Shown one piece after another: positions 2,025 to 44,077 of a DNA stretch of 44,077 bases (position 1 is the first letter of the stretch; every line of letters begins with the position of its first letter). The stretch is from Shigella phage EP23. Position numbers and translations under genes: made by a program. Location of the stretch: sequence record JN984867. One strand, given 5' to 3'. The notes below the pieces were generated by a model. That model had not been told where the DNA came from, ran no database searches, and saw nothing but the letters and a program-made list of their open reading frames with translations.

Positions 2025-3545
2025 ATGACCGTTAACGTTGACAACCAGCACCCACTCTATGCGCGCATCGCGCCAGAGTGGAAAATGATTCGCGATTGTG
2101 TAGCAGGGGAGCGCGCCGTGAAGGCGTGCGGACCATTGTATCTGCCACACCCAGCCAGCGGCGACACCACAGACCCGAAATCGCGTGCGCGCTATAAGGC
2201 ATATAAGCAACGCGCTGTCTTCCTGAACGCCACCGCCCGCACACTGAATGCCTTGTTAGGCGTCGCCTTCGCCAAACCGGTGAGTATGGACCTTTCCGGG
2301 GCAATGGCTGACCTGATCGAAGACGTAGACGGCAGCGGGATGCCCCTGGCGCAACTCCTGCGCGGCGCTATGTCGGAAGTGCTGCAATCGGGCCGCGCAG
2401 GCTTTATGGTGGACTATGACCGCCAGGCGCATTTTGACGAACTGGGTAACGTAGTGCCGCAGACAGCCGCTGAAATGGCGGCACACCGCCCGCTTATCCG
2501 CCTGTATACGGCTGAACAGATCATCAACTGGCGGCAGACCCACGGGGTCGACACGCTAATCGTGCTGAAGGAAACGGACGAAATCAGCACCGAAGACCAG
2601 GACGACTTCGCAAACCACGAGGTGACCATCTGGACCGAGCTTCGCATGATTGACGGCAAGGCACACGCCCGCCGCTGGTTTTACAATGCGGACACGTCAG
2701 AAGTGCAAATGGACTTGCCGCGGGGATTCACCCGAACCGACCTTGTTCCACTGGTGGATGCTGACGGTAACGCGCTTACTCAACTGCCATTTTGCTGGTG
2801 TGGTGCTGTGGACAACAACGCGACGCCGGACGCCGCACCGCTGGCGGATATTGCATCCATCAACATTAAGCACTACAACGCCGAAGCAGACGTCGCCGAG
2901 ATTGCGCACATTGTGGGCCAACCTACACTTATTGCGACCGGTCTTACCCAATCATGGGCTGATAAAAACCTGAAGGGTGGCATCGCACTAGGCGCGACTA
3001 AGGGCGTTATCCTGGGCCAGAACATGGACGCTAAACTGCTTCAGGCTGAGGAGAGAAACCTGTCAGTTGCGCTGTGTGAGCGACGCGAATTGCAAATGGC
3101 TAAACTGGGCGCGGCCCTGGTCGAGAAGGGGACCGCACCTAAGACGGCAACTGAAGCGGCCTACGATGCGCAGACTGATAACAGTATCCTGTCACTGATT
3201 GCCGGTAACGTTGAGAAGGCATTCAACCGTGCGCTGCAAATCGTCAAACTGTTCACTGGCGACACCGCAGATCAACGCGTAACGCTGAATAAGTTCTACA
3301 CCGAAATCACGGTTGACGCACAGCTTATGACCGCGATGATGGCTGGTGTGCAGACCGGTACGGTCCGTCTGGCGGACTTTATCAAGTGGATGATGGCCCA
3401 GGGCGTCATTGATGACTCGCAAACCGTTGAGCAGGTGGAAGACGAATTGCGAAATCAGAATCCATTGCCTCAAATGTCCCCGGATGCGGTAGAATCTACC
3501 GAAGAAGACCCGGACAAGGTAGCGGACAATGGCGAAGACAATTAA
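2025..3545 (+). CDS. portal protein
   Basis: 506 aa ORF following terminase, acidic C-terminal tail, typical size and position. Confidence 0.8.
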   Translation: MTVNVDNQHPLYARIAPEWKMIRDCVAGERAVKACGPLYLPHPASGDTTDPKSRARYKAYKQRAVFLNATARTLNALLGVAFAKPVSMDLSGAMADLIEDVDGSGMPLAQLLRGAMSEVLQSGRAGFMVDYDRQAHFDELGNVVPQTAAEMAAHRPLIRLYTAEQIINWRQTHGVDTLIVLKETDEISTEDQDDFANHEVTIWTELRMIDGKAHARRWFYNADTSEVQMDLPRGFTRTDLVPLVDADGNALTQLPFCWCGAVDNNATPDAAPLADIASINIKHYNAEADVAEIAHIVGQPTLIATGLTQSWADKNLKGGIALGATKGVILGQNMDAKLLQAEERNLSVALCERRELQMAKLGAALVEKGTAPKTATEAAYDAQTDNSILSLIAGNVEKAFNRALQIVKLFTGDTADQRVTLNKFYTEITVDAQLMTAMMAGVQTGTVRLADFIKWMMAQGVIDDSQTVEQVEDELRNQNPLPQMSPDAVESTEEDPDKVADNGEDN

Positions 3546-4632
3546 TCAATATATGGCGGATCGAATGATTCGCCGTCACATATTCACCCAGCGCCTGAGC
3601 AATGACCAGGCGCGGAGGGTGCTGGCTATGTGGGAGAAGTTCCGTCCCTCGTTACTTGGTAAGCTGACCGAGTTACTTGATGGCAAAAAATCCATGAATA
3701 ACAAGGCACTATCCACGCTGTTAACGCAACTCGACAAGACAGTTAAAGCAGAATTGCGCACCGAGTTTAAGGCGTTGGCTGAAAGCCTTCAGGAGTTTGC
3801 CGACACGGAGGCCGATTATCTCGCCGACACATTAACGGCAGCGATCCAGCCGGTGGTCGCTGTACCTGCGATCGAGGTGGTTGGCGTAGTGACCGGTGCG
3901 CAGATCGCAGCGACTGCGATGAAAAACCCGTTCCAGGGAAATACCATGATGCAATGGCCCGATTCATTGTCTGAGTGGACCAGGACGCAGATCGGGAATC
4001 AGGTGCGCGCTGGATTCATCCAGGGTAAGCCGACTATGGAAATTATAGCGGACGTGAGGCGCGCGCTCGGCGGTCGTAGTGCGCAAGCTATCTCAAGCGT
4101 TGTTAAGTCCGCAGTCAACCACTATGCGGCGACAGCCCGCGAATTAATGGTAAAAGCTAATGACGATATTCTCGAAGGTCGCCAATGGTTATCTACATTG
4201 GACACGCATACTTCTCCCATGTGCCAGCTACGCGATCGCCTGTTTTATCCGGTTGATGTTACTCCCGACACCAAAGGAAAGCGCGGCGGGAAAATGGTGG
4301 CTGGGTCACAATATGGCGCTGGTCCGGGAAAGTTGCATTATTGTTGCCGGTCGACGGAGACGTGGAAGGTTAAAGGCATGGAAGATTGGCCCAGTGGTAA
4401 GCGTCCGGCACTGAAGGCTGACGCGGGTCGATTGCTGAGTGAGCAGGTCGACGCGCAGACTGATTTCTTCTCATGGGTGCAGCGCCAGCCGCGCCATATC
4501 CTGGAAGAATTATACGGAGTGCAACGCGCCGACCAGATTATGCGCGGCGTGAAAGTGCCGAAGATGTTCACCGATTCAGGCGAACTAATGACTATTGCGC
4601 AGCTTAAAAACCGGGGGTTATGGCGTGATTAA
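3529..4632 (+). CDS. head morphogenesis / minor head protein (Mu gpF / SPP1 gp7-like)
   Basis: 367 aa ORF overlapping portal 3' end; conserved order terminase-portal-F-like. Confidence 0.7.
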   Translation: MAKTINQYMADRMIRRHIFTQRLSNDQARRVLAMWEKFRPSLLGKLTELLDGKKSMNNKALSTLLTQLDKTVKAELRTEFKALAESLQEFADTEADYLADTLTAAIQPVVAVPAIEVVGVVTGAQIAATAMKNPFQGNTMMQWPDSLSEWTRTQIGNQVRAGFIQGKPTMEIIADVRRALGGRSAQAISSVVKSAVNHYAATARELMVKANDDILEGRQWLSTLDTHTSPMCQLRDRLFYPVDVTPDTKGKRGGKMVAGSQYGAGPGKLHYCCRSTETWKVKGMEDWPSGKRPALKADAGRLLSEQVDAQTDFFSWVQRQPRHILEELYGVQRADQIMRGVKVPKMFTDSGELMTIAQLKNRGLWRD

Positions 4633-4954
4633 ATATGCAGCGATTGGACTGGGTGTCGGTCTGGCGGTAGGATTCTGGCTAGGTGACTCCTATCGCGCTG
4701 GCGTAGTGGCGGAGGCGGCGCAAGAAGCGCAAGCCCAAGCCCAACGGCAGCAAACTAAAGTTGTTGAGCGCTCCGTGCAGGCCGAACAGGCCCGCGACGT
4801 AGAATACCGGACTATCACGAAAGAGGTTGTTAAATATGTTACGCGCCCTAACCGCCCTGATTGTAGTTTTGATGCTGAGCGCGTGCGGATCAAGCAACGT
4901 GCCGTTGATGCCGCTAACGGAGTCGGCGCTGCGACCGCCGTGCAAGTTCGATAG
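4625..4954 (+). CDS. Rz: i-spanin (Rz-like): N-terminal TM helix plus periplasmic coiled coil
   Basis: In-frame GTG at 4625 preceded by GGGGG RBS; IKYAAIGLGVGLAVGFWLG TM segment then Q/A/E-rich helix; overlaps the Rz1-like ORF out of frame. Confidence 0.6.
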   Translation: MIKYAAIGLGVGLAVGFWLGDSYRAGVVAEAAQEAQAQAQRQQTKVVERSVQAEQARDVEYRTITKEVVKYVTRPNRPDCSFDAERVRIKQRAVDAANGVGAATAVQVR

Positions 4955-5066
4955 CCCGTCCGCAGACCCCGACGAGGATTTGATGATTGACGTGAAAAAT
5001 ATGGAATGCGGGGCGAAGCTGAGGGCGCAGGTCCTGGAGTTGCAGCAAATAATTAAGGGGCCGTAA
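4836..5066 (+). CDS. Rz1: o-spanin (Rz1-like outer-membrane lipoprotein)
   Basis: ATG at 4836 after AAGAGG RBS; signal peptide MLRALTALIVVLMLSAC with lipobox L-S-A-C, Pro-rich mature part; begins inside the Rz-like ORF in another frame. Confidence 0.65.
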   Translation: MLRALTALIVVLMLSACGSSNVPLMPLTESALRPPCKFDSPSADPDEDLMIDVKNMECGAKLRAQVLELQQIIKGP

Positions 5067-5077
5067 TGGCCCCTTTT
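5057..5077 (+). terminator. rho-independent terminator after spanin genes
   Basis: GGGGCC-gtaat-GGCCCC hairpin followed by TTTT; Rz1 stop codon lies in the loop. Confidence 0.6.
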
Positions 5078-5079
5078 CG

Positions 5080-5844
5080 TCAGCGCGGAATACCGCAAAT
5101 CTCGTTGAGAGTTTTCACATCCAGCGCCACCGCCGTGGATTTTGGCTTGTCCGGGTATGGTATGAATTGCTCAACTTCAGGCCATGCCTTAATCAGCTTC
5201 TTGTCAGTATTGTGCAGGTCCAGCACACCGGTAACGGTGAGTTTGAACGCATCATACTTCGCGCGTAACTCGCGACGGGCTTTGTCGTTGCGGTCCAGGC
5301 GTTTACAGAAATCATGATCTGCCGGGTAGTCTACGCGACCGCGTGGAAGATATATCGGCAGCGCTTTCCCGTCCTCGTCCACTTCGCACACTGACGCGAG
5401 CATAACCGTCTCGAACCCCGGAACGATATCGCCGAGATCAGGCGCGAGCATATTCATATATTTCTCTTCCCAGTACCCGCGATGTACGCGGTATTGGCGA
5501 CCGTCACCGCTCAAGGACAAGGTGCGAACATTTCCGCCTGCGTTGATTTCGAAAGTGGCGTCGTAAACGCTGCCGATACCCTTCGGACGGTCGGTGTTAT
5601 AACTATACGTCGCCTTGTTGGTGTATACGCTGACGCCGTACATCTGCGACTGGTCATCGAGGATTAACAGGATATGCTCGCGTAGCGCGGCGAATGTGCG
5701 AATGCCGTCCGGCATACAGTCCAGCGTGATTGCGTACGCCAGATCGCGGGAGTCCATCATGATTGATTTGGCTTCGGTTGCGATTTCGTGGTCGCGCAGG
5801 ATGTTAGCCAGGATCTGATTTTTAATGTCTTTCGTCAGTCTCAT
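5080..5844 (-). CDS. hypothetical protein (reverse-strand accessory gene inside structural module)
   Basis: 254 aa ORF, GAGGA RBS before ATG at 5844; no motif recognised. Confidence 0.5.
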   Translation of the reverse strand: MRLTKDIKNQILANILRDHEIATEAKSIMMDSRDLAYAITLDCMPDGIRTFAALREHILLILDDQSQMYGVSVYTNKATYSYNTDRPKGIGSVYDATFEINAGGNVRTLSLSGDGRQYRVHRGYWEEKYMNMLAPDLGDIVPGFETVMLASVCEVDEDGKALPIYLPRGRVDYPADHDFCKRLDRNDKARRELRAKYDAFKLTVTGVLDLHNTDKKLIKAWPEVEQFIPYPDKPKSTAVALDVKTLNEICGIPR

Positions 5845-5925
5845 TTTTGTGTCCTCGTTGTTGGGGCTTTCGCCCCGTTTGGTTTAGTTGAATTTGATGC
5901 CGCCACCAACAGGCCGCTTTGTTCG

Positions 5926-6438
5926 CTACAAACGCATCGGCATGATAACAAGGAAGGCCCCACCTTTGAACGACACACGTGTCGCCTTGTCGACCCCCCG
6001 GAATTCCAGTTTTAAGCTATCAAACTTACGGTCGAACAATTTAGCAATTTTGAAGGCGTCGGATAGGTATGCCCCATTAAACCCGATAGCCTCCACTTTA
6101 GCGCTGGCGAAAGACGAAACTCTACGCCAGTCTGGGAATCGTCCGTCTATGTTCTCTACGGGCAGGGTCCCTATTAATACGTCTTTACTATCAAAGAACG
6201 CTGCGGAGGTGTCGTCAATGTTGCAGTATTCGAATTTAGCAGGTAAGCGGCCTTTAATTGATACTATTTTACTTTCACCTTCGGGAACAACCGCGGACCC
6301 TAAGAACAAACGATGTCCGTCGGAGGCCACAATGAAGCCTTTCTCGTCGAAAAATACACCATTCAGATAGTATCGCACGTCATTAGTTGCGGCGCACATC
6401 ATAGCGGCTTTAAGATCGGCATAGTTAACTTTAATCAT
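5926..6438 (-). CDS. beta sliding clamp (DnaN)-like protein, half-size (about 170 aa)
   Basis: Motifs VRYYLNGVFF, IVASDGHRLF, DGRFPDWRRV, IGFNGAYLSDAF and C-terminal VIMPMRL parallel DnaN domain II-III landmarks (from memory of E. coli DnaN); start taken as second ATG after GAGGA RBS (track ORF extends to 6492). Confidence 0.6.
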   Translation of the reverse strand: MIKVNYADLKAAMMCAATNDVRYYLNGVFFDEKGFIVASDGHRLFLGSAVVPEGESKIVSIKGRLPAKFEYCNIDDTSAAFFDSKDVLIGTLPVENIDGRFPDWRRVSSFASAKVEAIGFNGAYLSDAFKIAKLFDRKFDSLKLEFRGVDKATRVSFKGGAFLVIMPMRL

Positions 6439-6462
6439 TATCATTTCCTCGTTGTTGGTGTG

Positions 6463-6532
6463 CAACCAATATAATGCAACCAACATCTGCAATGCAAGCG
6501 AATTTTGCGATTATTTTTATCGCTGATAATAT
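6463..6532. promoter_or_regulatory. divergent promoter region: leftward TTGCAT-N18-TATATT (clamp-like gene) and rightward TTGCGA-N16-TAATAT (scaffold gene), with two TGCAACCAA motifs
   Basis: Hexamers read directly; shares an extended block (TGCAAG-C/T-GAATTTTGC) with the 24.9 kb promoter. Confidence 0.5.
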
Positions 6533-17253: not shown

Positions 17254-17861
17254 CCACGTTTAAATTGTACGGCGTCTTAGGGCGTCGTTTTGGTAAAGTG
17301 CACAAGCTGGACTGCTTCACACCAGGCGAAGGCATCACCGGCCTGTGCGTTAAGTTACCTGGCTTACAGGACTTTCTAATGTCGGCCCACCTGGAAAACA
17401 TTATGTTCAAGGTGCGCAAGGGCAATCACACAATGACCGGATACGACGAGTTGGGCGAGTTCCACGGCGACCGCGTAGTGACCATCGCGCCGGTTATGAC
17501 TGGCGCAAAAAGAGGACTGGGTCAGTTGCTGGCAGGCGTAGCAATCGTGGTGGCGTCATTCTACACCGGCGGGCTTGCTACTGCCGCTTTTGGTGCTTCA
17601 GCCGCGACCGCTGCCGCTATTGGCACAGCAACTTTCTCGTTCGGGATGTCAATGGCGCTGGGCGGCGTTATGCAATTGCTGTCGCCACAGCCGAAAGGAT
17701 TGCAGACACGGCAGGACGTGGACAACAAAGCGTCGTATGCGTTCGGCGGACCGGTAAACACGACAGCGCAAGGTACCGCACTTGGTGTATTATGGGGCGA
17801 GCGTGAGATCGGCGGCGCTATTATTTCAGCCGGAATTGTAACCGAGGATTTTAACGAATGA
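17244..17861 (+). CDS. tail assembly protein, lambda gpI-like
   Basis: 205 aa with Gly/Ala-rich hydrophobic C-terminal half; overlaps K-like stop and J-like start. Confidence 0.6.
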   Translation: MAMTTFKLYGVLGRRFGKVHKLDCFTPGEGITGLCVKLPGLQDFLMSAHLENIMFKVRKGNHTMTGYDELGEFHGDRVVTIAPVMTGAKRGLGQLLAGVAIVVASFYTGGLATAAFGASAATAAAIGTATFSFGMSMALGGVMQLLSPQPKGLQTRQDVDNKASYAFGGPVNTTAQGTALGVLWGEREIGGAIISAGIVTEDFNE

Positions 17862-20800
17862 CGATTATCTACGACGTCACGGGCCATAAAGGCGGCGGCG
17901 CAAAACCGCACACCCCACAGGAGACGCCTGACAGCCTGCATTCACTGGCTAAAGCCCGCATCTTGCTAGCACTGGGTGAAGGTGAGTTTGAAGGCATCCC
18001 GACCGACAACGAATTACGGCAGCGCGTTTATTTGGACGGCACGCCGATCCAGAACGCCGACCGATCCGAAAACTTCCCCGGCGCGCGCGTGGAGTTCCGC
18101 CCAGGCACACAGCACCAGGACGTTATTCACGGATTTTCCGCGGTGGAAAGCGAGCAGACAGTGGGTGTAAAACTGGAATACGGCACGCCGTGGGTGCGCC
18201 AGATTAACGACACCAGTTTGGACGCCGTGCGCATTCGAGTCGGTATACCGGCCCTGTACACTAACGAAGATAATGGCGACCTGGTGGGCGGGCGCATCGA
18301 CTATAAAATCGTTGTGTATACGGATAACGCCGATCCGCGCGAGTTCCGCTTCGCTGCCGTTGGAAAAACAATGTCGCTGTACGAGCGCGACCACCGCATC
18401 GAGCTACCGTCTAACGTGAATACCGGCTGGCGCGTGGAGGTGCACCGCTTAACGGCTGATTCCACCTCTGCGAAAGTGGTCAATGATATCCGGGTGCAAT
18501 CCATTACGGAGATTATCGACGCCCGCCTGCGATACCCGCTAACCGCGCTGTTGTTCGTGGAGTTCGACGCTAAGGCTTTCCAGAATATCCCGCGCGTGTC
18601 AATCAAGTGCAAAGGTCGCAAGGTGTTGGTCCCGAACAACTACGACCCGATTAATCACACCTATTCGGGGGACTGGGATGGCACGTTTAAACGCGCATGG
18701 ACGGATAACCCTGCGTGGCACTGGTACGATATTTGTATTACTGAGCGCTTTGGCCTCGGTCGTCGTATCAAACCGCAAATGCTAAACCGATACGCGCTTT
18801 ACCAGGTTGCGCAGCGCTGCGATCAGCTGGTCAGCGACGGCAACGGCGGGCAGGAAATCCGATTTAAGAATGATATGTACATCCAGTCGCAGACCGACGC
18901 CTGGACCGTGCTTAAGGATTTAGCCGCTATCTTTGCCGGTATGACCTGGTGGGGCAATCAGATGTTAAATATCGTCAGTGACCAGCCGGTAGCCGCGGTA
19001 TCGCACACTATCACAAACGCCTCGGTGATTGATGGTCGATTCGACTACGCATCCGGTAGCCAGAAAACCCGGTATTCCACGTTCGCGGTAGCATACGGCA
19101 ACCCGAAGAACCACTACGAAGACGCCATCGCAACGGGCCAGCGCGTCGAACTGGTGCGCCGCCATAAGATTAACCGCCTCGATATTACGGCGATCGGCTG
19201 TACGCGTGAGTCCGAAGCGCAACGCCGCGGGCACTGGGCGCTAATCTCCAACCAGCTTGACCAGCAAGTTAGCTTTAAGGTTGGCATGGAAGGGCTGTTT
19301 TTTATCCCGGGAAGCGTAGTTGCGATCGCGGATACTAATATTTCCGGCGGCTTCGAGACACGCGGCGGACGCCTGTTGTCAGATCCAGGGACGCGTACTG
19401 TGCTGAACACGGACAGCGAAATCACGTTCCGCCCTGGCGATAAATTCTTGGTGCGCACCGATAGCGGGAATGTGGAGACTCGCGAGATTGCCAGCGTCAA
19501 CGGCAACAAGGTTACGCTGAAAACAGCACTGAACGCTGACCCGATTCCCGATCAACCGTTTTGCGTTGATGGCGACGATATCCAGTTGCAGAAGTTCCGC
19601 ATCACCGACCTGGAATATGACGACGCTACCAGCACTTTCTCGGTGCGCGGGATTGAATACAACGACAGCAAATACGATGCCGTTGATAATGGCGCTCGCC
19701 TTGATCCGGGCATCTTCACGCAAGTTCCTGACGGCGTAATGAAGGGGCCGGAGTCGGTAATCATCACCCCGTCGCAGATCTCATCGCAAGGCCAGCTAAT
19801 CACCAACGTGGATATTGTTTTCCCGCCGGTGAAAGATGCCGTTGTGTACGAAATCCAGTGGCGGCGCACCAGCTTGCAGAATATGGAAATCCAGTGGGGT
19901 AACGACTGGGTGAACCTTCCACGCACGGCATCGAACGGCGCGCACATCCCTAACGTGTTCTCCGGCAACTACCAGGCACGCGTCCGCGCGATCGGTATGG
20001 GTGAGATTTCATCCCCGTGGGTGGAGTCCGCCATCACGCCGGTGGAAGGTCGCCTCGGCGGGCTTAACGCGCCGATCATCACCAACGCGATTTCTGGCCT
20101 CCACCAGATTTTGTGGAAGTGGAACCATAATAACGCCGCGACGGATATCTCATACACCGAGCTTGAAGTGCGCAAGACCGGTGAGACGGAATGGAAATTT
20201 CTTACCAACGTCCCATATCCAGGGGCGGAGTATGCACAAACGTCTCTGGAGTTCGGTATCTATCAGCAGTTGCGCGCCCGCGTAGCGGATAAAATCGGCA
20301 ACCTGTCGGACTGGTCGGCCCCGTTTGAAGGGCAGGTAAGTAACAAAGTTGACGAGTACATGAAGGGGCTTGACGATGAGTTCTTGACTTCTGAGGATGG
20401 TAAACGCTTCCAGGAAGCGATCGACACCATGCCGCAAGGCATTTACGAGGCCATGCTCACCGACGCGCAGCAAATGTTCAACGCCCGCGCTGAGTACCAG
20501 GGGATTTATGCGGAAATCAAGGTGGCGTATAACGTGGCAGCAGACGCCCACCAGGCCGTCGCGCAACTGGAGACGTTGATCGGCACGCGCCTTGACGAAG
20601 CTGAAGCGGCGATTCACACGTTGCAGACGGCGCAGAGTACGCAAGAGCAGGCCTTCGCCCGGTATCAGCAGACTGTTGCCGCTAAGTTCTCGGAGCAGGA
20701 AGCCGCTATCCAGCAGGTACAGACGGCAACGGCGGACGTAGCTGGCGCACTGGCGGAGTATAAGACCCAGGTCGCAGCACAGTTTGGGCAGCAGTCTGCC

Positions 20801-21676
20801 GCTATTGAGCAGAAGATGACGTCTTCGTTTAACCACTCCGGTGGTAGCGCCACGTACAGCCTTAAGGCGGGCGTGACGTATAACGGGACTTACTACGATG
20901 CCGGTATGCAGCTTTCCGTCGTGACGTCGGGCAACGCGGTTAAATCACGCATCGCATTCAAGGCGGACCAGTTCTACATCATGCACCCGTCCAACGGCAC
21001 GCTGTCATCGGCGTTTATTGTGGATGGGGGACAGGTGTATATAGACACAGCCCGCATCAAGAACGCGTCCATAAACTTCGCGCAGATCACGGACACGCTG
21101 CGGTCAGATAACTTCGTAGCGGGATCACGCGGGTGGAACCTGCCTAAATCTGGTAATGCGGAGCTTAACAATGTGACAGTCCGCGGCACCGTTTATGCGA
21201 ATGATGGTGAGTTCCGGGGCACGGTTTATGCAAGGGATGGGGTATTTACCGGAACGGTCGAAGCCACCAGTTTTGTCGGTGACGTTGCAAATATGTGTGT
21301 TATCGGTGCGAAAGCAATACCCAACACAGCCAGGAATGGATCAAGGTCGTGGTCGGTGACTTTCAACGACTCATCCAATTCAACAAAACTCAAAGACTTT
21401 GTATTGCTGTTAAGCTACTCACTGGTCGGGTACACCGCAAGCCAGTCAAGCCGCATTGCTATTACCGCCAATATTGGCGGGAAAGTAGTCTCAAGGACTA
21501 TTGAACGAGCGGCAAGCGGAAACGCAATCCATACAACGATTCCTTTAGCTGCGAAAGGTGTAACGGCGGGAAGTGTGACAATTACTGTGAAAGAAGAGTA
21601 TACAAACGTCTACGGCAGCACATTGCACCCGTCTGTAATTTTAATGACTCGTGGGACAGGTAGCTGGTCGCAATAA
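17858..21676 (+). CDS. central tail fiber / host specificity protein, lambda gpJ-like
   Basis: 1272 aa, largest virion ORF, follows I-like gene; C-terminal ~130 aa distinct and Ser/Thr-rich. Confidence 0.85.
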   Translation: MTIIYDVTGHKGGGAKPHTPQETPDSLHSLAKARILLALGEGEFEGIPTDNELRQRVYLDGTPIQNADRSENFPGARVEFRPGTQHQDVIHGFSAVESEQTVGVKLEYGTPWVRQINDTSLDAVRIRVGIPALYTNEDNGDLVGGRIDYKIVVYTDNADPREFRFAAVGKTMSLYERDHRIELPSNVNTGWRVEVHRLTADSTSAKVVNDIRVQSITEIIDARLRYPLTALLFVEFDAKAFQNIPRVSIKCKGRKVLVPNNYDPINHTYSGDWDGTFKRAWTDNPAWHWYDICITERFGLGRRIKPQMLNRYALYQVAQRCDQLVSDGNGGQEIRFKNDMYIQSQTDAWTVLKDLAAIFAGMTWWGNQMLNIVSDQPVAAVSHTITNASVIDGRFDYASGSQKTRYSTFAVAYGNPKNHYEDAIATGQRVELVRRHKINRLDITAIGCTRESEAQRRGHWALISNQLDQQVSFKVGMEGLFFIPGSVVAIADTNISGGFETRGGRLLSDPGTRTVLNTDSEITFRPGDKFLVRTDSGNVETREIASVNGNKVTLKTALNADPIPDQPFCVDGDDIQLQKFRITDLEYDDATSTFSVRGIEYNDSKYDAVDNGARLDPGIFTQVPDGVMKGPESVIITPSQISSQGQLITNVDIVFPPVKDAVVYEIQWRRTSLQNMEIQWGNDWVNLPRTASNGAHIPNVFSGNYQARVRAIGMGEISSPWVESAITPVEGRLGGLNAPIITNAISGLHQILWKWNHNNAATDISYTELEVRKTGETEWKFLTNVPYPGAEYAQTSLEFGIYQQLRARVADKIGNLSDWSAPFEGQVSNKVDEYMKGLDDEFLTSEDGKRFQEAIDTMPQGIYEAMLTDAQQMFNARAEYQGIYAEIKVAYNVAADAHQAVAQLETLIGTRLDEAEAAIHTLQTAQSTQEQAFARYQQTVAAKFSEQEAAIQQVQTATADVAGALAEYKTQVAAQFGQQSAAIEQKMTSSFNHSGGSATYSLKAGVTYNGTYYDAGMQLSVVTSGNAVKSRIAFKADQFYIMHPSNGTLSSAFIVDGGQVYIDTARIKNASINFAQITDTLRSDNFVAGSRGWNLPKSGNAELNNVTVRGTVYANDGEFRGTVYARDGVFTGTVEATSFVGDVANMCVIGAKAIPNTARNGSRSWSVTFNDSSNSTKLKDFVLLLSYSLVGYTASQSSRIAITANIGGKVVSRTIERAASGNAIHTTIPLAAKGVTAGSVTITVKEEYTNVYGSTLHPSVILMTRGTGSWSQ

Positions 21677-21682
21677 GCAAAT

Positions 21683-21709
21683 AGCCCCTCGCTTGAGGGG
21701 CTATCTTTT
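21683..21709. terminator. bidirectional rho-independent terminator between J-like gene and convergent lipoprotein gene
   Basis: AGCCCCTC-gctt-GAGGGGCT hairpin flanked by A/T runs on both sides. Confidence 0.7.
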
Positions 21710-21950
21710 AATAATCAATGACGCAGTTTGATGGGGAACCAATCCTGCGGTGTTCGTGGCTAATCTCCTGGCACCACTGACCGGTATATGGTAGCTTTTC
21801 GGTATCGTAAACCAAAGACCCGTCCTCATGTCGCTCAATAGGCTGAGGTATTACACCGGAATTTGGAACGCCTGTGCTTAAGCCGCTGCCACATGCCGTC
21901 ATCAGAAGGCACGCCGCGGGTATTATCAGATTTTTGATTAAAGTTTTCAT
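21708..21950 (-). CDS. small lipoprotein, candidate receptor-blocking superinfection-exclusion protein (Llp/Cor-like by position)
   Basis: ATG 21950 after AGGAG RBS; signal peptide MKTLIKNLIIPAACLLMTAC with lipobox L-M-T-A-C; 80 aa; sits between J-like and fiber genes on opposite strand. Confidence 0.55.
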   Translation of the reverse strand: MKTLIKNLIIPAACLLMTACGSGLSTGVPNSGVIPQPIERHEDGSLVYDTEKLPYTGQWCQEISHEHRRIGSPSNCVIDY

Positions 21951-22031
21951 GTTATCATCTCCTGTATTGGGTTGAGTTTTAGTATTACACCGCTCAACCA
22001 AGAATGCAACCAATTTTATGAGGATTTAGCT

Positions 22032-23660
22032 ATGGCAGCGGGTACGCTCTCCGTAACGAACAATAGCAAGGCTGTAGTAGGGGTTGGCACAACGTTTACC
22101 GAGTACAAGGCTGGTGACTTCTTATCGCTGGTGGTTGGGCAAGTGCCTTACACCGTGGCGATCGCGTCCATCGAAAGCGCAACCGCGCTCACACTGGTGT
22201 TGCCGTTCGACGGCCCAACGGCGACGGGTCTGGCCTGGGACGGCATCAAACGTGACACCATGTCATTGGCGACGATGGGCGTAACCGTCCAGGCGCAAAA
22301 AGCATTGCGATTGATGATCGCAGATGAGAACAACTGGCGCGCAATCTTCGGAGAAGAAGAGGAAATAACAGTGACGTTACCTAACGGGCAGGTTATGCAG
22401 GGCATGTCATGGGGCTATCTGTCGCAGCTAATGAAGCAGATCGACCCCGTAGAAATGCGCAACCTGCAACAACAGGCCGAGACGGCAAAAAACCAGGCTG
22501 TTACTGCGAAGGGCCAGGCAGAATCAGCGCGCGATGCGGCTAATACAGCAAAAACTGGCGCGGAGAACGCCCGCAACCAGGCCAACACCGCACGTGATCA
22601 GGCCAACACCGCCAAAACAGGCGCAGAATCAGCGCGCGATGCGGCTAATACAGCAAAAACTGGTGCGGAGAACGCCCGCAGCCAGGCGCAAGGGTATCGC
22701 GACGAAGCAGAGCAGTTTAAAAACCAAATCAACCCATCACAGTTCATGCTTAAGTCGCAAAACCTTAGCGACGTAGCGAACAAAGATACGGCGCGGGACA
22801 ATCTGTCACTAGGCCGCACTCAGCGTGCGCAATTTGAGGGGGTTGACCTGTCTAAAAGCGACTGGCCCGGCTTAAGGTTTATTACAACCAGCATGTCACC
22901 AACAGAGGTCGGCTATCGCGTTGTCTTTGAGCATGATTCGAGTGATAACCGCATGGCGCTCTACTGGCGAAATGGCTCAGATGCCAATGGGCAGGCCGCC
23001 GTCCACTTCACCGCGCCTGCCAGCGGGCAGACGCGATTTATTGCATACAAGGAAGAAGTAAACCTTCCAGAAATTACAGGCTGGGGCGTAGCGGCTCCCT
23101 CGCAAGGACCGAGGGCGACGAACGCCACAAACCTTGCGCCGGGGCTTTATTGGGGTACCGTCGCTGACGTCGGCAATCCAATTTCAGGAACACTCGGCAT
23201 GTCGATGCTTCAAACATCAGGATCATCCGCCAATTACCGCTGCCAGTTGGTGTTTCAGGATAGCGCGGGCGGGGCGATGTATCTCCGTTCCAGTAATAGT
23301 AGCGTTTTTGGTAACTACAAGCAGGTAACTACCTCTGCGGTGTCGGATGAGCGCCTGAAAACTGTCCGGGGAAATCTTAATCTAGAAGGTGCGCTGGATA
23401 ACATAAACCGAATGGATTTTAAAATTTTCTCGTTCCTGAGTGATGGGCCGGAACGTAGCTACCGACGCGGCGTTATCTCGCAGCAGATCCGCCAGATTGA
23501 TAAGCAGTACACGAAAGAGATCGGCGGGTACTATCATCTTGATCAGACACCAATGCTACTGGACGCCCTAGCGGCAATTAAAGCATTGCGGGCGCGTGAC
23601 GAGGCTAATAAAGCAGAGATTGCAGAGTTAAAAGCGGCGATTGCAGAATTGAAAAAATAA
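22032..23660 (+). CDS. L-shaped-type tail fiber with internal repeats and C-terminal intramolecular chaperone (peptidase S74-like) domain
   Basis: ATG 22032 after GAGGA; repeated ANTAKTGAENAR units; C-terminus SDERLKTVRGNLNLEG...NRMDFKIFSF resembles S74 autoproteolytic chaperone region. Confidence 0.75.
   Translation: MAAGTLSVTNNSKAVVGVGTTFTEYKAGDFLSLVVGQVPYTVAIASIESATALTLVLPFDGPTATGLAWDGIKRDTMSLATMGVTVQAQKALRLMIADENNWRAIFGEEEEITVTLPNGQVMQGMSWGYLSQLMKQIDPVEMRNLQQQAETAKNQAVTAKGQAESARDAANTAKTGAENARNQANTARDQANTAKTGAESARDAANTAKTGAENARSQAQGYRDEAEQFKNQINPSQFMLKSQNLSDVANKDTARDNLSLGRTQRAQFEGVDLSKSDWPGLRFITTSMSPTEVGYRVVFEHDSSDNRMALYWRNGSDANGQAAVHFTAPASGQTRFIAYKEEVNLPEITGWGVAAPSQGPRATNATNLAPGLYWGTVADVGNPISGTLGMSMLQTSGSSANYRCQLVFQDSAGGAMYLRSSNSSVFGNYKQVTTSAVSDERLKTVRGNLNLEGALDNINRMDFKIFSFLSDGPERSYRRGVISQQIRQIDKQYTKEIGGYYHLDQTPMLLDALAAIKALRARDEANKAEIAELKAAIAELKK
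22519..22686 (+). repeat. two near-identical ~64-bp direct repeats (period 104 bp) inside the fiber gene
   Basis: gcagaatcagcgcgcgatgcggctaatacagcaaaaactgg(c/t)gcggagaacgcccgca(a/g)ccaggc at 22519 and 22623. Confidence 0.85.
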
Positions 23661-40693: not shown

Positions 40694-40900
40694 GTGCGAC
40701 GATCCGTGATATGCTTCAGCACAACCGCTTTGAAATAGGCGGTCGGGTATTTCGAAATTACTTCGTGGCGCGTGCATGGGCGCGCCATATTGGCAAACCG
40801 GAAGGGGAAATTCGATGCTATACGTCTTCGCGGTAGTATGTGGCGGTAGTCTGGCGGCCCTGGTGCTGTTGGCGTCGGTTATTAGTCTGGTTAAATACCT

Positions 40901-41200
40901 ATGGGGCAGATTATGATTCATGATGTGATTTATTGGTTTGGTATGGCCAGCATGTTATGCCTGGTTACGGGAGTGCTGGGCGCAATATGGGTATTCCTGG
41001 TATGGCCTGCGGTGGAAGCTGCCAGCATTACCCGGATGACATTCGAGATCTACAAGCGCCGTGGAATAACGGAGCACCCGACCAGGCTTCGGATGTGGTG
41101 GCTGTGGTATCGGGATATGATAGGCGGTCGAACATTCGAAGCCGTCCGCTCATCCGGGTGGGAGTGGAAAGCCGTCGGCAAGTGGTCCGTTTTCGATTAA
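40901..41200 (+). CDS. small membrane protein
   Basis: 99 aa, hydrophobic N-terminus WFGMASMLCLVTGVLGAIWVFLVW. Confidence 0.4.
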   Translation: MGQIMIHDVIYWFGMASMLCLVTGVLGAIWVFLVWPAVEAASITRMTFEIYKRRGITEHPTRLRMWWLWYRDMIGGRTFEAVRSSGWEWKAVGKWSVFD

Positions 41201-41217
41201 TTATGCAAGCGTGATAT

Positions 41218-41253
41218 AGTCCCAGTGAGCTAAAACTTACTGGGACTTTTTTA
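41218..41253 (+). terminator. rho-independent terminator just upstream of holin gene
   Basis: AGTCCCAGT...ACTGGGACT hairpin followed by TTTTTT. Confidence 0.6.
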
Positions 41254-41543
41254 TGGATAAGCTAAACGAGTGGCTATTCGCCCTGGCATGTCTGGCGGGT
41301 GGCTTCGTAGGCGCACGCATTCATGGTGAGGCTACGAAGGGGCCACTAAACTTCGTTTTGTATGTTGTAGTTGGCTTCTTGTGTGCCATATTTGGCGCAC
41401 CGGCTATTGCCGAGTGGGCTGGTTTGTCGGGTGAGCGCACTGTCGCCGGTTTAGGCTTCGTAACCGCAATCTTCTGGATGCCAATCGCCGACCGGATCAG
41501 GGAGACTATTGCGTCGTTCCGACTTCCGGGGGGCGCAAAATGA
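41253..41543 (+). CDS. holin (putative, multi-TM)
   Basis: 96 aa, several hydrophobic helices, directly upstream of lysozyme. Confidence 0.55.
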   Translation: MDKLNEWLFALACLAGGFVGARIHGEATKGPLNFVLYVVVGFLCAIFGAPAIAEWAGLSGERTVAGLGFVTAIFWMPIADRIRETIASFRLPGGAK

Positions 41544-41785
41544 TTATCTCCGTCCTGTTGTTTGTTATCATCGGGGCTTCGTCCCTGTTTAACGTGTATG
41601 CGCCGTCCGTCCGGGATGGCATTTTCGGTCGGGTGCTGTATCTGTTAACGGCAATGGTCTGTATTATCGGATTGCTGCAAACAGGAGACGTATCTGATAC
41701 CACATGGACCGCGTTAATCTGGCTGTTTGCATTGCGCACCCTGCGTAATGCTGTTTTGAATGGGGTAAAACATGCGATTCAGTGA
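41540..41785 (+). CDS. second small membrane protein (holin/antiholin-like)
   Basis: 81 aa, two hydrophobic segments; overlaps holin stop and endolysin start. Confidence 0.45.
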   Translation: MIISVLLFVIIGASSLFNVYAPSVRDGIFGRVLYLLTAMVCIIGLLQTGDVSDTTWTALIWLFALRTLRNAVLNGVKHAIQ

Positions 41786-42263
41786 TAACGGTCTACGATT
41801 TACGGCAGCCTGGGAGGCTTTCAGCCCGGTGCCGTATTTCGCGACCAAGAAAGAGCAGGCCCGCGGCCTGTACACCTGGGGTTATGGTCATACCGGCACT
41901 AATCCGCCTCGAAGCATTACCCGCGAGGAAGCGCTGGCACTGCTCAAGCGCGATGTGGCGTATGCTGAGGACTGGGTTAACAAATACGCACATCCGAGCA
42001 TTAACCAGGCGCAATTCGACGCGCTGGTGGACCTGGTAATCAACGCCGGTCCTGGTCCGATCGTACCGGATGACGTCGCGAATGATTTCGATGATGCGGT
42101 ACGGTTGGGCGACTGGGCGAAGGTCCGTGCTACGCTGCCGCAGTTCCGCAAGCAAGGCGGCGAAGTGCTTAAGGGTCTGGTACGCCGTGCAATCGGCAGA
42201 CAGGCGTTGTTTGATGGTAAGCAGTGGGACGTTGCCGAACGAATCGGTCGTAACGCTGCATAA
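41772..42263 (+). CDS. endolysin, lysozyme-like
   Basis: 163 aa; TWGYGHTG and overall pattern of phage lysozyme family; position after holins. Confidence 0.7.
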   Translation: MRFSDNGLRFTAAWEAFSPVPYFATKKEQARGLYTWGYGHTGTNPPRSITREEALALLKRDVAYAEDWVNKYAHPSINQAQFDALVDLVINAGPGPIVPDDVANDFDDAVRLGDWAKVRATLPQFRKQGGEVLKGLVRRAIGRQALFDGKQWDVAERIGRNAA

Positions 42264-42280
42264 TACGAGGTAACACAGTA

Positions 42281-42446
42281 TGTTAAAAAGCATTCTTGAT
42301 CATAATGCGGACGCGCTTGCCGCACTGGCTAAAACCGAAGACCCAGGCGCACGCGCTATCATAGCGGACTCTATCAACCACGCTGGGGTCTTCGATGCGA
42401 AGCTGCCAAGCCCACCACCGCAGGAGGAATCTGGTCCTGCAGCGTA
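42281..42446 (+). CDS. small hypothetical protein (55 aa)
   Basis: ATG after GAGG; hand-translated; below track cut-off. Confidence 0.3.
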
Positions 42447-42454
42447 AACAATCA

Positions 42455-42479
42455 AGCCCGGAATTAACCGGGCTTTTTA
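42455..42479 (+). terminator. rho-independent terminator after lysis genes
   Basis: AGCCCGG-aattaa-CCGGGCT hairpin followed by TTTTT. Confidence 0.65.
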
Positions 42480-42483
42480 TTGC

Positions 42484-42513
42484 TTGACTTGCAACCAACA
42501 TAGACTCTATACT
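42484..42513 (+). promoter_or_regulatory. promoter TTGACT-N18-TATACT with TGCAACCAA in spacer
   Basis: Read directly; followed by 26-codon micro-ORF (42543-42623) and gene at 42685. Confidence 0.55.
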
Positions 42514-44036: not shown

Positions 44037-44077
44037 ACCGCATAGCCTGCCGATTTGGTGGGCTTTTTTGTGCCTGT

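Follow-up and report, generated by a model that had tools for sequence, protein, structure and literature searches.

The genome of Shigella phage EP23 carries, at nucleotides 4,625 to 5,066, two overlapping genes whose products, with a probability of about 0.9, form a two-component spanin belonging to the overlapped 'Jersey' family, expressed, acting and having evolved as proposed below; the genes lie 6.4 kb away from those of the holin and endolysin. The window, 44,077 bp, covers the complete genome of a Dhillonvirus, an E. coli siphophage of the HK578/SSL-2009a-like type. The identification holds because the two products combine an N-terminal transmembrane helix, a lipobox with a sorting residue, a +1 overlap, conserved cysteines, PHROG matches and homology to the Jersey proteins. 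Transmembrane segments were called by Kyte-Doolittle hydropathy using 17 residues and lipoproteins by regular expression, the latter among all ORFs of 40 amino acids or more in the six frames of the complete window. Codon-position variation and the locus alignment were based on 15 related sequences, and conservation of the lipobox and of the o-spanin cysteines on 14 Dhillonvirus loci. The features of the spanin locus are the following.

3529-4632, plus strand: head morphogenesis gene (SPP1 gp7/Mu F-like), taken from the ORF list; phrog_241, 9e-117.
4613-4617, plus strand: Shine-Dalgarno-like GGGGG of the i-spanin gene, 7 nt 5' of its GTG, conserved in the relatives of the 15-sequence alignment.
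4625-4954, plus strand: i-spanin gene, GTG start, 109 amino acids, with an N-terminal transmembrane domain, a charged periplasmic domain and one cysteine (C80).
4634-4684, plus strand: i-spanin transmembrane codons, amino acids 4-20, YAAIGLGVGLAVGFWLG, with a Kyte-Doolittle 17-residue maximum of 1.66.
4821-4826, plus strand: o-spanin Shine-Dalgarno sequence AAGAGG, within the i-spanin gene and 9 nt 5' of the ATG at 4836, invariant in the 15 sequences.
4836-5066, plus strand: o-spanin gene, ATG start, encoding a lipoprotein precursor of 76 amino acids, 60 when mature.
4875-4886, plus strand: o-spanin lipobox LSAC, amino acids 14-17, with Cys17 predicted to be lipidated; MLRALTALIVVLMLSAC followed by GSS.

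The i-spanin gene, beginning with its GTG, overlaps the last 8 nucleotides of the head morphogenesis gene, whose stop codon occupies nucleotides 4630-4632 (GTGATTAA). This start is supported by the related locus L017, which has an in-frame TAA seven codons 5' of the GTG; the alternative start TTG at 4595 was rejected, the codon being absent in L017 and the in-frame TAA intervening. Hydropathy detected a single hydrophobic segment (amino acids 1-20), as in a type II membrane protein. This segment is Gly-rich and of modest hydropathy (1.66), and it is conserved and more hydrophobic in the relatives (AAIGLVIGLAVGFWLG). The remainder of the protein is highly charged, with D, E, K or R at 26 of 86 residues, and Cys80 is conserved across relatives. 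A single-sequence AF2 model, which is of low confidence (mean pLDDT 57.8), has helices at residues 11-72 and 84-97 and a linker at 73-83 that carries the cysteine, a layout with which the helix prediction published for this i-spanin subfamily agrees (PMC6139136), and the periplasmic domain is probably helical.

The o-spanin gene is read in the +1 frame relative to the i-spanin gene and the two overlap by 119 nucleotides. A TTG at 4827 was discarded as its start, as the Shine-Dalgarno sequence would abut it while the ATG at 4836 has a 9-nucleotide spacing. The glycine at position +2 of Cys17 predicts sorting to the outer membrane. A lipobox with its cysteine (LSAC, MSAC or LTAC) is found in all 14 Dhillonvirus loci, and so are the two cysteines of the mature protein, Cys36 and Cys59; two conserved cysteines have been noted for Jersey-family o-spanins (PMC6139136). 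Together with Cys80 of the i-spanin, these residues would be available for intermolecular disulfide bonds, as expected of a spanin pair. The original prediction of Rz/Rz1-like overlapping spanin genes reaching into the 3' end of the head morphogenesis gene was therefore borne out, with the transmembrane helix and the lipoprotein signal both detected by hydropathy and regular expression, the +1 overlap, the 8-nucleotide overlap at the i-spanin start and matches to PHROGs 2536 and 5672.

As six-frame lists often contain short overlapping ORFs, the frame at 4836-5066 might be open by chance, leaving only the i-spanin-like gene as real. This is effectively refuted by conservation, by the codon-position pattern and by similarity to Jersey gp10, and has a negligible likelihood. 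The ORF, its ATG, the AAGAGG and the lipobox are intact in 15 of 15 sequences. Variable sites at codon positions 1, 2 and 3 number 23, 11 and 44 in the part that is i-spanin only and 12, 5 and 22 in the part that is o-spanin only, so that variation in the latter peaks at the third position of the o-spanin frame; in the overlap it falls at both third positions (16 and 16) as compared with 6 at the position that is second in the i-spanin and first in the o-spanin frame. This pattern in the aligned sequences shows that both frames are under purifying selection and vary as genuine coding sequence does. With Jersey gp10 the product shares 47% identity (E 1e-21). Furthermore, lipoprotein signals are rare in the window: other than the spanin ORF, counted with both candidate starts, the stringent scan left only one unrelated lipoprotein in the tail module, and a genome with just two such ORFs makes the finding at this locus more than chance. 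An 84-amino acid ORF (4160-4414) located out of frame inside the head morphogenesis gene had been flagged by a first version of the lipobox expression. It was rejected, since it has neither a proper signal peptide nor an n-region with positive charge and failed the stricter scan, and its conservation is due to the host gene.

The family to which the pair belongs was recognized through PHROGs and through Jersey. The i-spanin matches phrog_2536 (2.8e-35) and the o-spanin phrog_5672 (4.1e-26), both of which are "Rz-like spanin" families, as well as phrog_1267 (1.5e-11); the i-spanin is 43% identical to Jersey gp09 (E 5e-16). Kongari et al. (2018, PMC6139136) list HK578, SSL-2009a, JL1 and EP23 itself as Jersey family members for both spanin subunits; at the DNA level the window shares 95% identity with SSL-2009a in the spanin region, and in RefSeq the SSL-2009a genes at identical coordinates (gp05/gp06) are annotated as spanins. 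Pfam gave no match at E≤0.1 for either spanin, including PF03245 and Rz1, or for either holin; only PHROGs recognized them. BLASTP against lambda Rz and Rz1 showed no similarity (E 13 and 11, respectively). Membership in the lambda Rz/Rz1 sequence family was rejected on these two grounds and on the architecture, which is overlapped and not embedded. No published genetic test of any Jersey-family spanin was found in the literature, and the assignment of function is based on sequence signals and family membership.

The holin and endolysin genes had been placed at 41.2 to 42.3 kb, and they were indeed found there as a compact cassette.

41253-41543, plus strand: holin-like gene 1, 96 amino acids, three hydrophobic segments; phrog_2359, 8.5e-32.
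41540-41785, plus strand: holin-like gene 2, the holin/antiholin partner, 81 amino acids, two hydrophobic segments; phrog_2508, 1.9e-27.
41772-42263, plus strand: endolysin, a soluble lysozyme with no N-terminal hydrophobic or transmembrane segment; PF00959, 9e-21; phrog_7.

The ends of the window join, as at least 48 phage records with different permutations contain the junction sequence unbroken, so that on the circular map 44077-42263+4624 = 6438 nucleotides separate the i-spanin start from the stop codon of the endolysin gene. Six genes occupy this interval: the exonuclease gene, a 70-amino acid ORF, terS, terL, portal and head morphogenesis. The predicted separation of about 6 kb with terminase and portal genes in between thus stands, and the lysis genes do not form a single contiguous holin-endolysin-spanin cassette. 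The ORFs adjoining the endolysin gene have neither a transmembrane domain nor a lipobox, and neither a canonical spanin pair nor a u-spanin is found there. The ORF 3' of the endolysin gene is acidic and has no cationic amphipathic character, and neither a further spanin candidate nor an alternative outer-membrane disruptor was found in the genome. A u-spanin of the T1 gp11 type was not found elsewhere in the window either, as the sole other ORF with a lipoprotein signal (21708-21950, minus strand, phrog_12984) lacks a C-terminal hydrophobic segment.

The location of the two genes inside the head module and away from the lysis genes, along with a family assignment made from sequence and the lack of Pfam matches and of similarity to lambda Rz/Rz1, could suggest that they encode other envelope proteins, such as superinfection exclusion, injection-related or head-assembly-associated factors, and that outer-membrane disruption is spanin-independent. 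We consider this very unlikely. The combination of a transmembrane protein with a lipoprotein in the +1 frame is the signature of spanins, and the periplasmic cysteines are conserved as in other spanin families. Members of PHROGs 2536 and 5672 directly follow holin, holin and endolysin genes in another phage contig (L020, described below), and in locus L022 a more distant relative of the i-spanin is also endolysin-linked. Besides, this genome would have no other outer-membrane disruptor, its other lipoprotein lacking the C-terminal transmembrane domain.

The organization of transcription was deduced from promoters and terminators called by match to consensus.

5055-5075, strand unassigned: GC-rich hairpin after the o-spanin gene, AAGGGGCC-GTAAT-GGCCCCTT, flanked by T-runs on either side; -19.4 kcal/mol.
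42454-42475, strand unassigned: terminator-like bidirectional hairpin after the lysis cassette, whose motif recurs in 11 of 17 related loci.
42484-42513: promoter-like TTGACT-18-TATACT, a consensus match downstream of the 42454-42475 hairpin.
44044-44064, plus strand: terminator-like hairpin followed by T6, preceding the genome junction.
44075-44077 continuing into 1-6: consensus extended -10 sequence TGTTATAAT, spanning the junction about 50 nucleotides before terS.

The stop codon of the o-spanin gene sits in the loop of the 5055-5075 hairpin, which is conserved across the 15-sequence alignment, where the pair at the base of the stem has undergone one compensatory change, from A-T to G-C. 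This structure is probably a bidirectional intrinsic terminator closing both the packaging/head/spanin unit and a convergent minus-strand unit. The lysis cassette and the exonuclease and packaging units are set apart from one another by terminator-like hairpins, and TGTTATAAT is a putative promoter for the unit in which the spanins come last. An extended -10-like sequence, TGATATAGT, followed by a conserved hairpin and T-run, lies directly before the holin ATG (41209-41252).

This last element resembles lambda pR'-tR', and it raises the question of whether all genes from the holin to the spanins belong to one lambda-like late transcript, with antitermination or leaky termination allowing read-through of the three intervening hairpins. 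In that case the 'split' would amount to no more than spanins displaced to the distal end of a common operon. All the genes lie on the plus strand and are contiguous across the junction, and their order is that of the lambda late genes with the spanins moved downstream; the homologous pair in L020 is found in the order holin-holin-endolysin-spanins-terS. On the other hand, three conserved and strong terminator-like hairpins (at 42454-42475, at 44044-44064 and before the holin gene) would have to be passed, two of them are followed by good promoter-like sites (TTGACT-18-TATACT and TGTTATAAT), and no antiterminator-like protein is recognizable among the small ORFs 5' of the holin gene, all of which fall in PHROGs of unknown function. 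A single transcript is therefore unlikely. The specific version in which the lysis, exonuclease and packaging/head/spanin units form one antitermination-controlled operon, with 41209-41252 as an attenuator of the pR'-tR' type, is also unlikely. If it were true, an unrecognized factor of the phage would enable RNA polymerase to pass the three hairpins and reach the terminator after the o-spanin gene, the spanins would be the deliberate last cistrons of a transcript running from lysis to morphogenesis, and the coupling to the head gene would tie the capacity for outer-membrane disruption to head production.

In the arrangement that we favor, the spanin pair would be the last two cistrons of a unit comprising terS, terL, portal, head morphogenesis and i-spanin/o-spanin, which would run from the extended -10 promoter at the junction to the 5055-5075 hairpin. 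The sequence motifs further suggest that translation of the i-spanin is coupled to that of the head morphogenesis gene through the 8-nucleotide overlap, and that the o-spanin is translated from its own Shine-Dalgarno sequence within the i-spanin gene. By analogy with lambda Rz/Rz1, the i- and o-spanin would be joined by their C-termini into a complex spanning the periplasm, and this complex would build up harmlessly late in infection, restrained by the intact peptidoglycan mesh. Upon triggering of the holin, the endolysin (41772-42263) would destroy the murein, and the complexes thus released would complete lysis by fusing the inner membrane with the outer. The timing would be set by the holin alone, the spanins being passive while the wall is present. 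Since spanins are inactive until the endolysin acts, late expression would suffice and linkage to the holin-endolysin cassette would not be required. The split layout would be a stable, ancestral arrangement in Dhillonvirus and Guernseyvirinae.

Related phages share this layout. In Jersey the spanins, which belong to the same PHROGs and likewise overlap in the +1 frame, lie at 7.5-8.0 kb after the head morphogenesis gene and the holin-holin-endolysin genes at 41.2-42.2 kb, but its i-spanin has 128 amino acids as opposed to 109 in the Dhillonvirus subfamily. SSL-2009a also has a remote holin-holin-endolysin cassette, and in phage Schulenberg the holin/antiholin and endolysin genes have been described as 'genetically separate' from overlapping spanins (PMC6763661). 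For K1ind2 (ORF5/6) the likeness established concerns the spanin slot, with the pair placed after a head gene of the SPP1 gp7 family. What follows the spanins differs: in Dhillonvirus it is the terminator together with an Nmad5/clamp-like module in convergent orientation, and in Jersey and K1ind2 the genes for scaffold and capsid come directly next.

Unlinked lysis genes have their classical precedent in T4, in which the spanin genes PseT.3/PseT.2 are distant from the holin (t) and endolysin (e) genes (PMC6139136). T4 likewise has a two-component spanin unlinked to holin and endolysin, but its pair is of the 'separated', non-overlapping type and belongs to another sequence family, and its holin and endolysin genes are unlinked to each other whereas those of EP23 form a compact cassette. 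With lambda Rz/Rz1 the pair would share the mechanism and the topologies, a type II inner-membrane protein and an outer-membrane lipoprotein in the +1 frame, and on the circular maps of both phages the terminase genes come just after the lysis cassette. In contrast to the embedded Rz1 of lambda, the EP23 pair is overlapped and located 6.4 kb downstream of the endolysin gene, behind the portal and head morphogenesis genes. L020 (IMG/VR contig UViG_3300011800_000008) has an overlapped pair of the same PHROGs (2536/5672) with 38% and 36% identity, but there the spanins directly follow holin, holin and endolysin genes, the endolysin being of another family (phrog_181), and precede terS. Because this pair is linked to the endolysin gene, the spanin family appears as a movable module for which endolysin linkage is optional.

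The observation and its interpretation are thus correct but already known, having been annotated and published for this phage group, and the layout is consequently ordinary and unremarkable for the clade. In many GenBank records of the clade one or both spanin genes are still named 'hypothetical protein', and the overlapping o-spanin gene is missing from some. The value of the finding lies more in annotation than in discovery: in Dhillonvirus and Guernseyvirinae the spanins are to be sought behind the head morphogenesis gene and not beside the endolysin gene. The arrangement illustrates the accepted view that spanins need late expression only while the holin sets the timing of lysis, and L020, when compared with it, shows that this spanin module is found both linked and unlinked to an endolysin gene.

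The sequence of nucleotides 4625-5066 supports a predicted two-component spanin pair, located apart from the holin and endolysin genes. The relevant features are listed below.

Genes and signals of the packaging, spanin and lysis regions
56-628: terS, coordinates as in NC_012223
628-2013: terL, coordinates as in NC_012223
2025-3545: portal, coordinates as in NC_012223
3529-4632: head morphogenesis, coordinates as in NC_012223
4625 (GTG) to 4954: i-spanin candidate, 109 aa
4836 (ATG) to 5066: o-spanin candidate, +1 frame relative to i-spanin, 76 aa
5055-5075: GC-rich hairpin 3' of o-spanin, T-runs on both strands, o-spanin stop in the loop
41218-41247: conserved terminator-like hairpin just 5' of holin
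41253-41543: holin-like gene 1, PHROG 2359
41540-41785: holin-like gene 2, PHROG 2508
41772-42263: endolysin, soluble lysozyme-type, PF00959
42454-42475: conserved terminator-like hairpin 3' of the lysis cassette
42484-42513: promoter-like TTGACT-18-TATACT, consensus match, after the preceding hairpin
44044-44064: conserved terminator-like hairpin 5' of terS, followed by T6
Window end/start junction: perfect extended -10 TGTTATAAT, consensus match, about 50 nt 5' of terS

The i-spanin GTG, preceded by GGGGG 7 nt upstream, lies within the motif GTGATTAA and as a consequence the gene shares 8 nt, stop codon included, with head morphogenesis; the sequence suggests that the two genes may be translationally coupled. 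A longer version starting at TTG-4595 was discarded because the most divergent locus, L017, has an in-frame TAA seven codons 5' of the GTG. The protein has a single hydrophobic segment, at the N-terminus (YAAIGLGVGLAVGFWLG), after which comes an 86-residue domain that is strongly charged and contains a single Cys. Its single-sequence, low-confidence AlphaFold2 model shows a long helix, a Cys-bearing linker and a second helix, in agreement with the published description of the Jersey 'EP23 to SO-1' subfamily. The o-spanin ATG is located 9 nt 3' of AAGAGG, and the two genes overlap by 119 nt. The o-spanin N-terminus is a lipoprotein signal, MLRALTALIVVLMLSAC followed by GSS, with the lipobox LSAC and a Gly at +2 that predicts sorting to the outer membrane; the mature protein would consist of 60 residues, including 7 Pro and two further Cys.

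Profile searches placed i-spanin in the PHROG 'Rz-like spanin' family 2536 (2.8e-35) and o-spanin in families 5672 (4.1e-26) and 1267 (1.5e-11). The proteins showed 43% (E 5e-16) and 47% (E 1e-21) identity to gp09 and gp10 of Salmonella phage Jersey, respectively, and tblastn matches to i-spanin were found in about 670 phage records. No Pfam model matched either protein, no similarity to lambda Rz/Rz1 was found for either, and a literature search found no genetic test of function for this family. The original observation of two genes overlapping each other and the 3' end of the head-morphogenesis gene is confirmed in all its details, and the hydrophobic segment, lipobox, family assignments and Jersey homology support their reading as spanin genes.

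Both reading frames were examined in an alignment of the window with the same region of 14 Dhillonvirus contigs (15 sequences). Variable sites at codon positions 1/2/3 numbered 23/11/44 for the i-frame in the i-only part and 12/5/22 for the o-frame in the o-only part. Within the overlap, variation fell mostly at sites that are third positions in either frame (16 and 16) while the i2/o1 position was almost invariant (6/40 variable), a pattern typical of two genuine genes that overlap. Every aligned sequence keeps the o-spanin ATG, Shine-Dalgarno, lipobox, Cys36 and Cys59 and, for i-spanin, the GTG context and Cys80. When all six frames of the complete genome were scanned for lipoprotein-signal ORFs of at least 40 aa, only o-spanin and one unrelated tail-module lipoprotein emerged. 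The latter (80 aa, 21708-21950, minus strand, signal MKTLIKNLIIPAACLLMTAC, phrog_12984 'lipoprotein') lies antisense in the interval that separates the central tail fibre gene (17858-21676) from another tail fibre gene (21972-23660). It was rejected as a unimolecular spanin since it lacks a C-terminal TMD; judging by where it is encoded, it may block a receptor and exclude superinfecting phages in the manner of T5 Llp / T1 Cor.

The two holin-like genes and the endolysin gene form a compact cassette, and lie at 41.2-42.3 kb as had been proposed. Over the window junction, 6438 nt separate the endolysin stop from the i-spanin start, close to the roughly 6 kb anticipated; this interval includes a 55-aa ORF, a DNA-repair exonuclease, a 70-aa ORF, terS, terL, portal and head morphogenesis. 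No rival spanin was found beside the endolysin or elsewhere in the genome; the ORF 3' of the endolysin is acidic and has neither TMD nor lipobox. This 55-aa ORF (42280-42447, phrog_11068) is replaced in SSL-2009a by a 134-aa 'structural protein with Ig domain', and the distance from endolysin to the 42454-type hairpin in relatives is about 200 or 440 nt, indicating a variable slot. Two small membrane-protein ORFs lie at 40776-41200, directly 5' of the pre-holin hairpin: one of 46 aa with one TMD and one of 99 aa (phrog_2531) with two hydrophobic segments, the latter kept beside the holins in L041 and partially matched 3' of the endolysin in L040, both loci of relatives. They may take part in lysis, as antiholin or lysis regulator, or be membrane proteins of other function.

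The end-to-start join of the window is unbroken sequence in at least 48 phage records with other permutations; therefore the window is a complete genome and the circular map is legitimate. Positions 3500-5900 of the window share 94-96.5% identity with about 135 full-length records of Dhillonvirus, the HK578/SSL-2009a-like E. coli siphophages (about 44-45 kb), and the left-end gene coordinates match those of RefSeq NC_012223 (SSL-2009a) base for base. A near-identical genome is filed as 'Acinetobacter phage NJ01', probably a host mislabel or contaminant.

The hairpin at 5055-5075 is kept in 15/15 sequences, where the base of its stem shows a compensatory A-T to G-C change, and the minus-strand genes at 5080-6492 converge on it. 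This two-gene module, which separates the spanins from the scaffold gene, encodes an Nmad5 protein ('nucleotide modification associated domain 5', PF18757, 2e-58); its other product weakly matches the DNA pol III beta-clamp and is labelled 'RusA-like' by PHROGs (phrog_3007). The sequence directly 3' of this hairpin varies among Dhillonvirus loci (L009, L012, L015), L017 lacks the clamp-like gene, and Jersey and K1ind2, unlike the window, lack the module in this slot. The junction extended -10 is the likely promoter of the packaging/head/spanin unit, of which the signals suggest the spanins to be the final cistrons, transcribed apart from holin and endolysin; a lambda-like antiterminated late operon from holin to spanins is very improbable. 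An extended -10-like TGATATAGT (within 41209-41255) directly precedes the 12-bp pre-holin hairpin (about -24 kcal/mol with flanks) and its T6. The holin ATG abuts the T-run, and the sole Shine-Dalgarno-like sequence, GGGA, is within the hairpin's 3' arm. Fourteen Dhillonvirus loci keep both hairpin and T-run; a compensatory C/G insertion occurs in L041, and in L040 a hairpin of different sequence occupies the same place. The structure could terminate the upstream operon, act as a leader attenuator or slow translation of holin.

By analogy with lambda, the i- and o-subunits would bridge the periplasm, the murein mesh would keep the bridge inactive until holin triggering frees the endolysin, and the complexes would then drive fusion of the inner with the outer membrane. 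Since the holin sets the timing, the spanin genes would only have to be expressed late and would not have to be linked to the cassette.

The split layout is already known. In the SSL-2009a RefSeq record both genes are annotated 'Rz-like spanin' at the same coordinates, with holins and endolysin at 41.9-42.9 kb, and BASEL and other records name them i-spanin and o-spanin. Many GenBank records of the clade call one or both 'hypothetical protein', 'Phage protein', 'signal peptide-containing protein' or even 'transcriptional regulator'. Kongari et al. 2018 included HK578, SSL-2009a, JL1, EP23 and SO-1 in the 27-member 'Jersey' overlapped i-/o-spanin families, describing a short 'EP23 to SO-1' subfamily and two conserved o-spanin cysteines (PMC6139136). 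Jersey shares the layout: its spanins follow head morphogenesis at 7.5-8.0 kb and its holin-holin-endolysin genes lie at 41.2-42.2 kb. K1ind2 carries the pair ('putative spanin; overlapping gene') in the same slot, after an SPP1 gp7-family head gene. T4 pseT.3/pseT.2 are the textbook spanins unlinked from t and e (PMC6139136), and lysis cassettes are described as likewise absent from Campylobacter phages in another report (PMC7692668). The IMG/VR contig UViG_3300011800_000008 has a canonical cassette (1221-2957): holin, holin, GH19-type endolysin and overlapped i/o-spanin of the same PHROGs, then terS. Another metagenomic viral contig (L022, 1007-2944) has endolysin, a small membrane protein, an opposite-strand HNH endonuclease and then a more distant, endolysin-linked i-spanin relative, whose candidate embedded lipoprotein ORF matched no PHROG. 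These endolysin-linked relatives indicate that the spanin pair behaves as a movable module, and its head-module position is a clade-specific, stable alternative to the cassette position.
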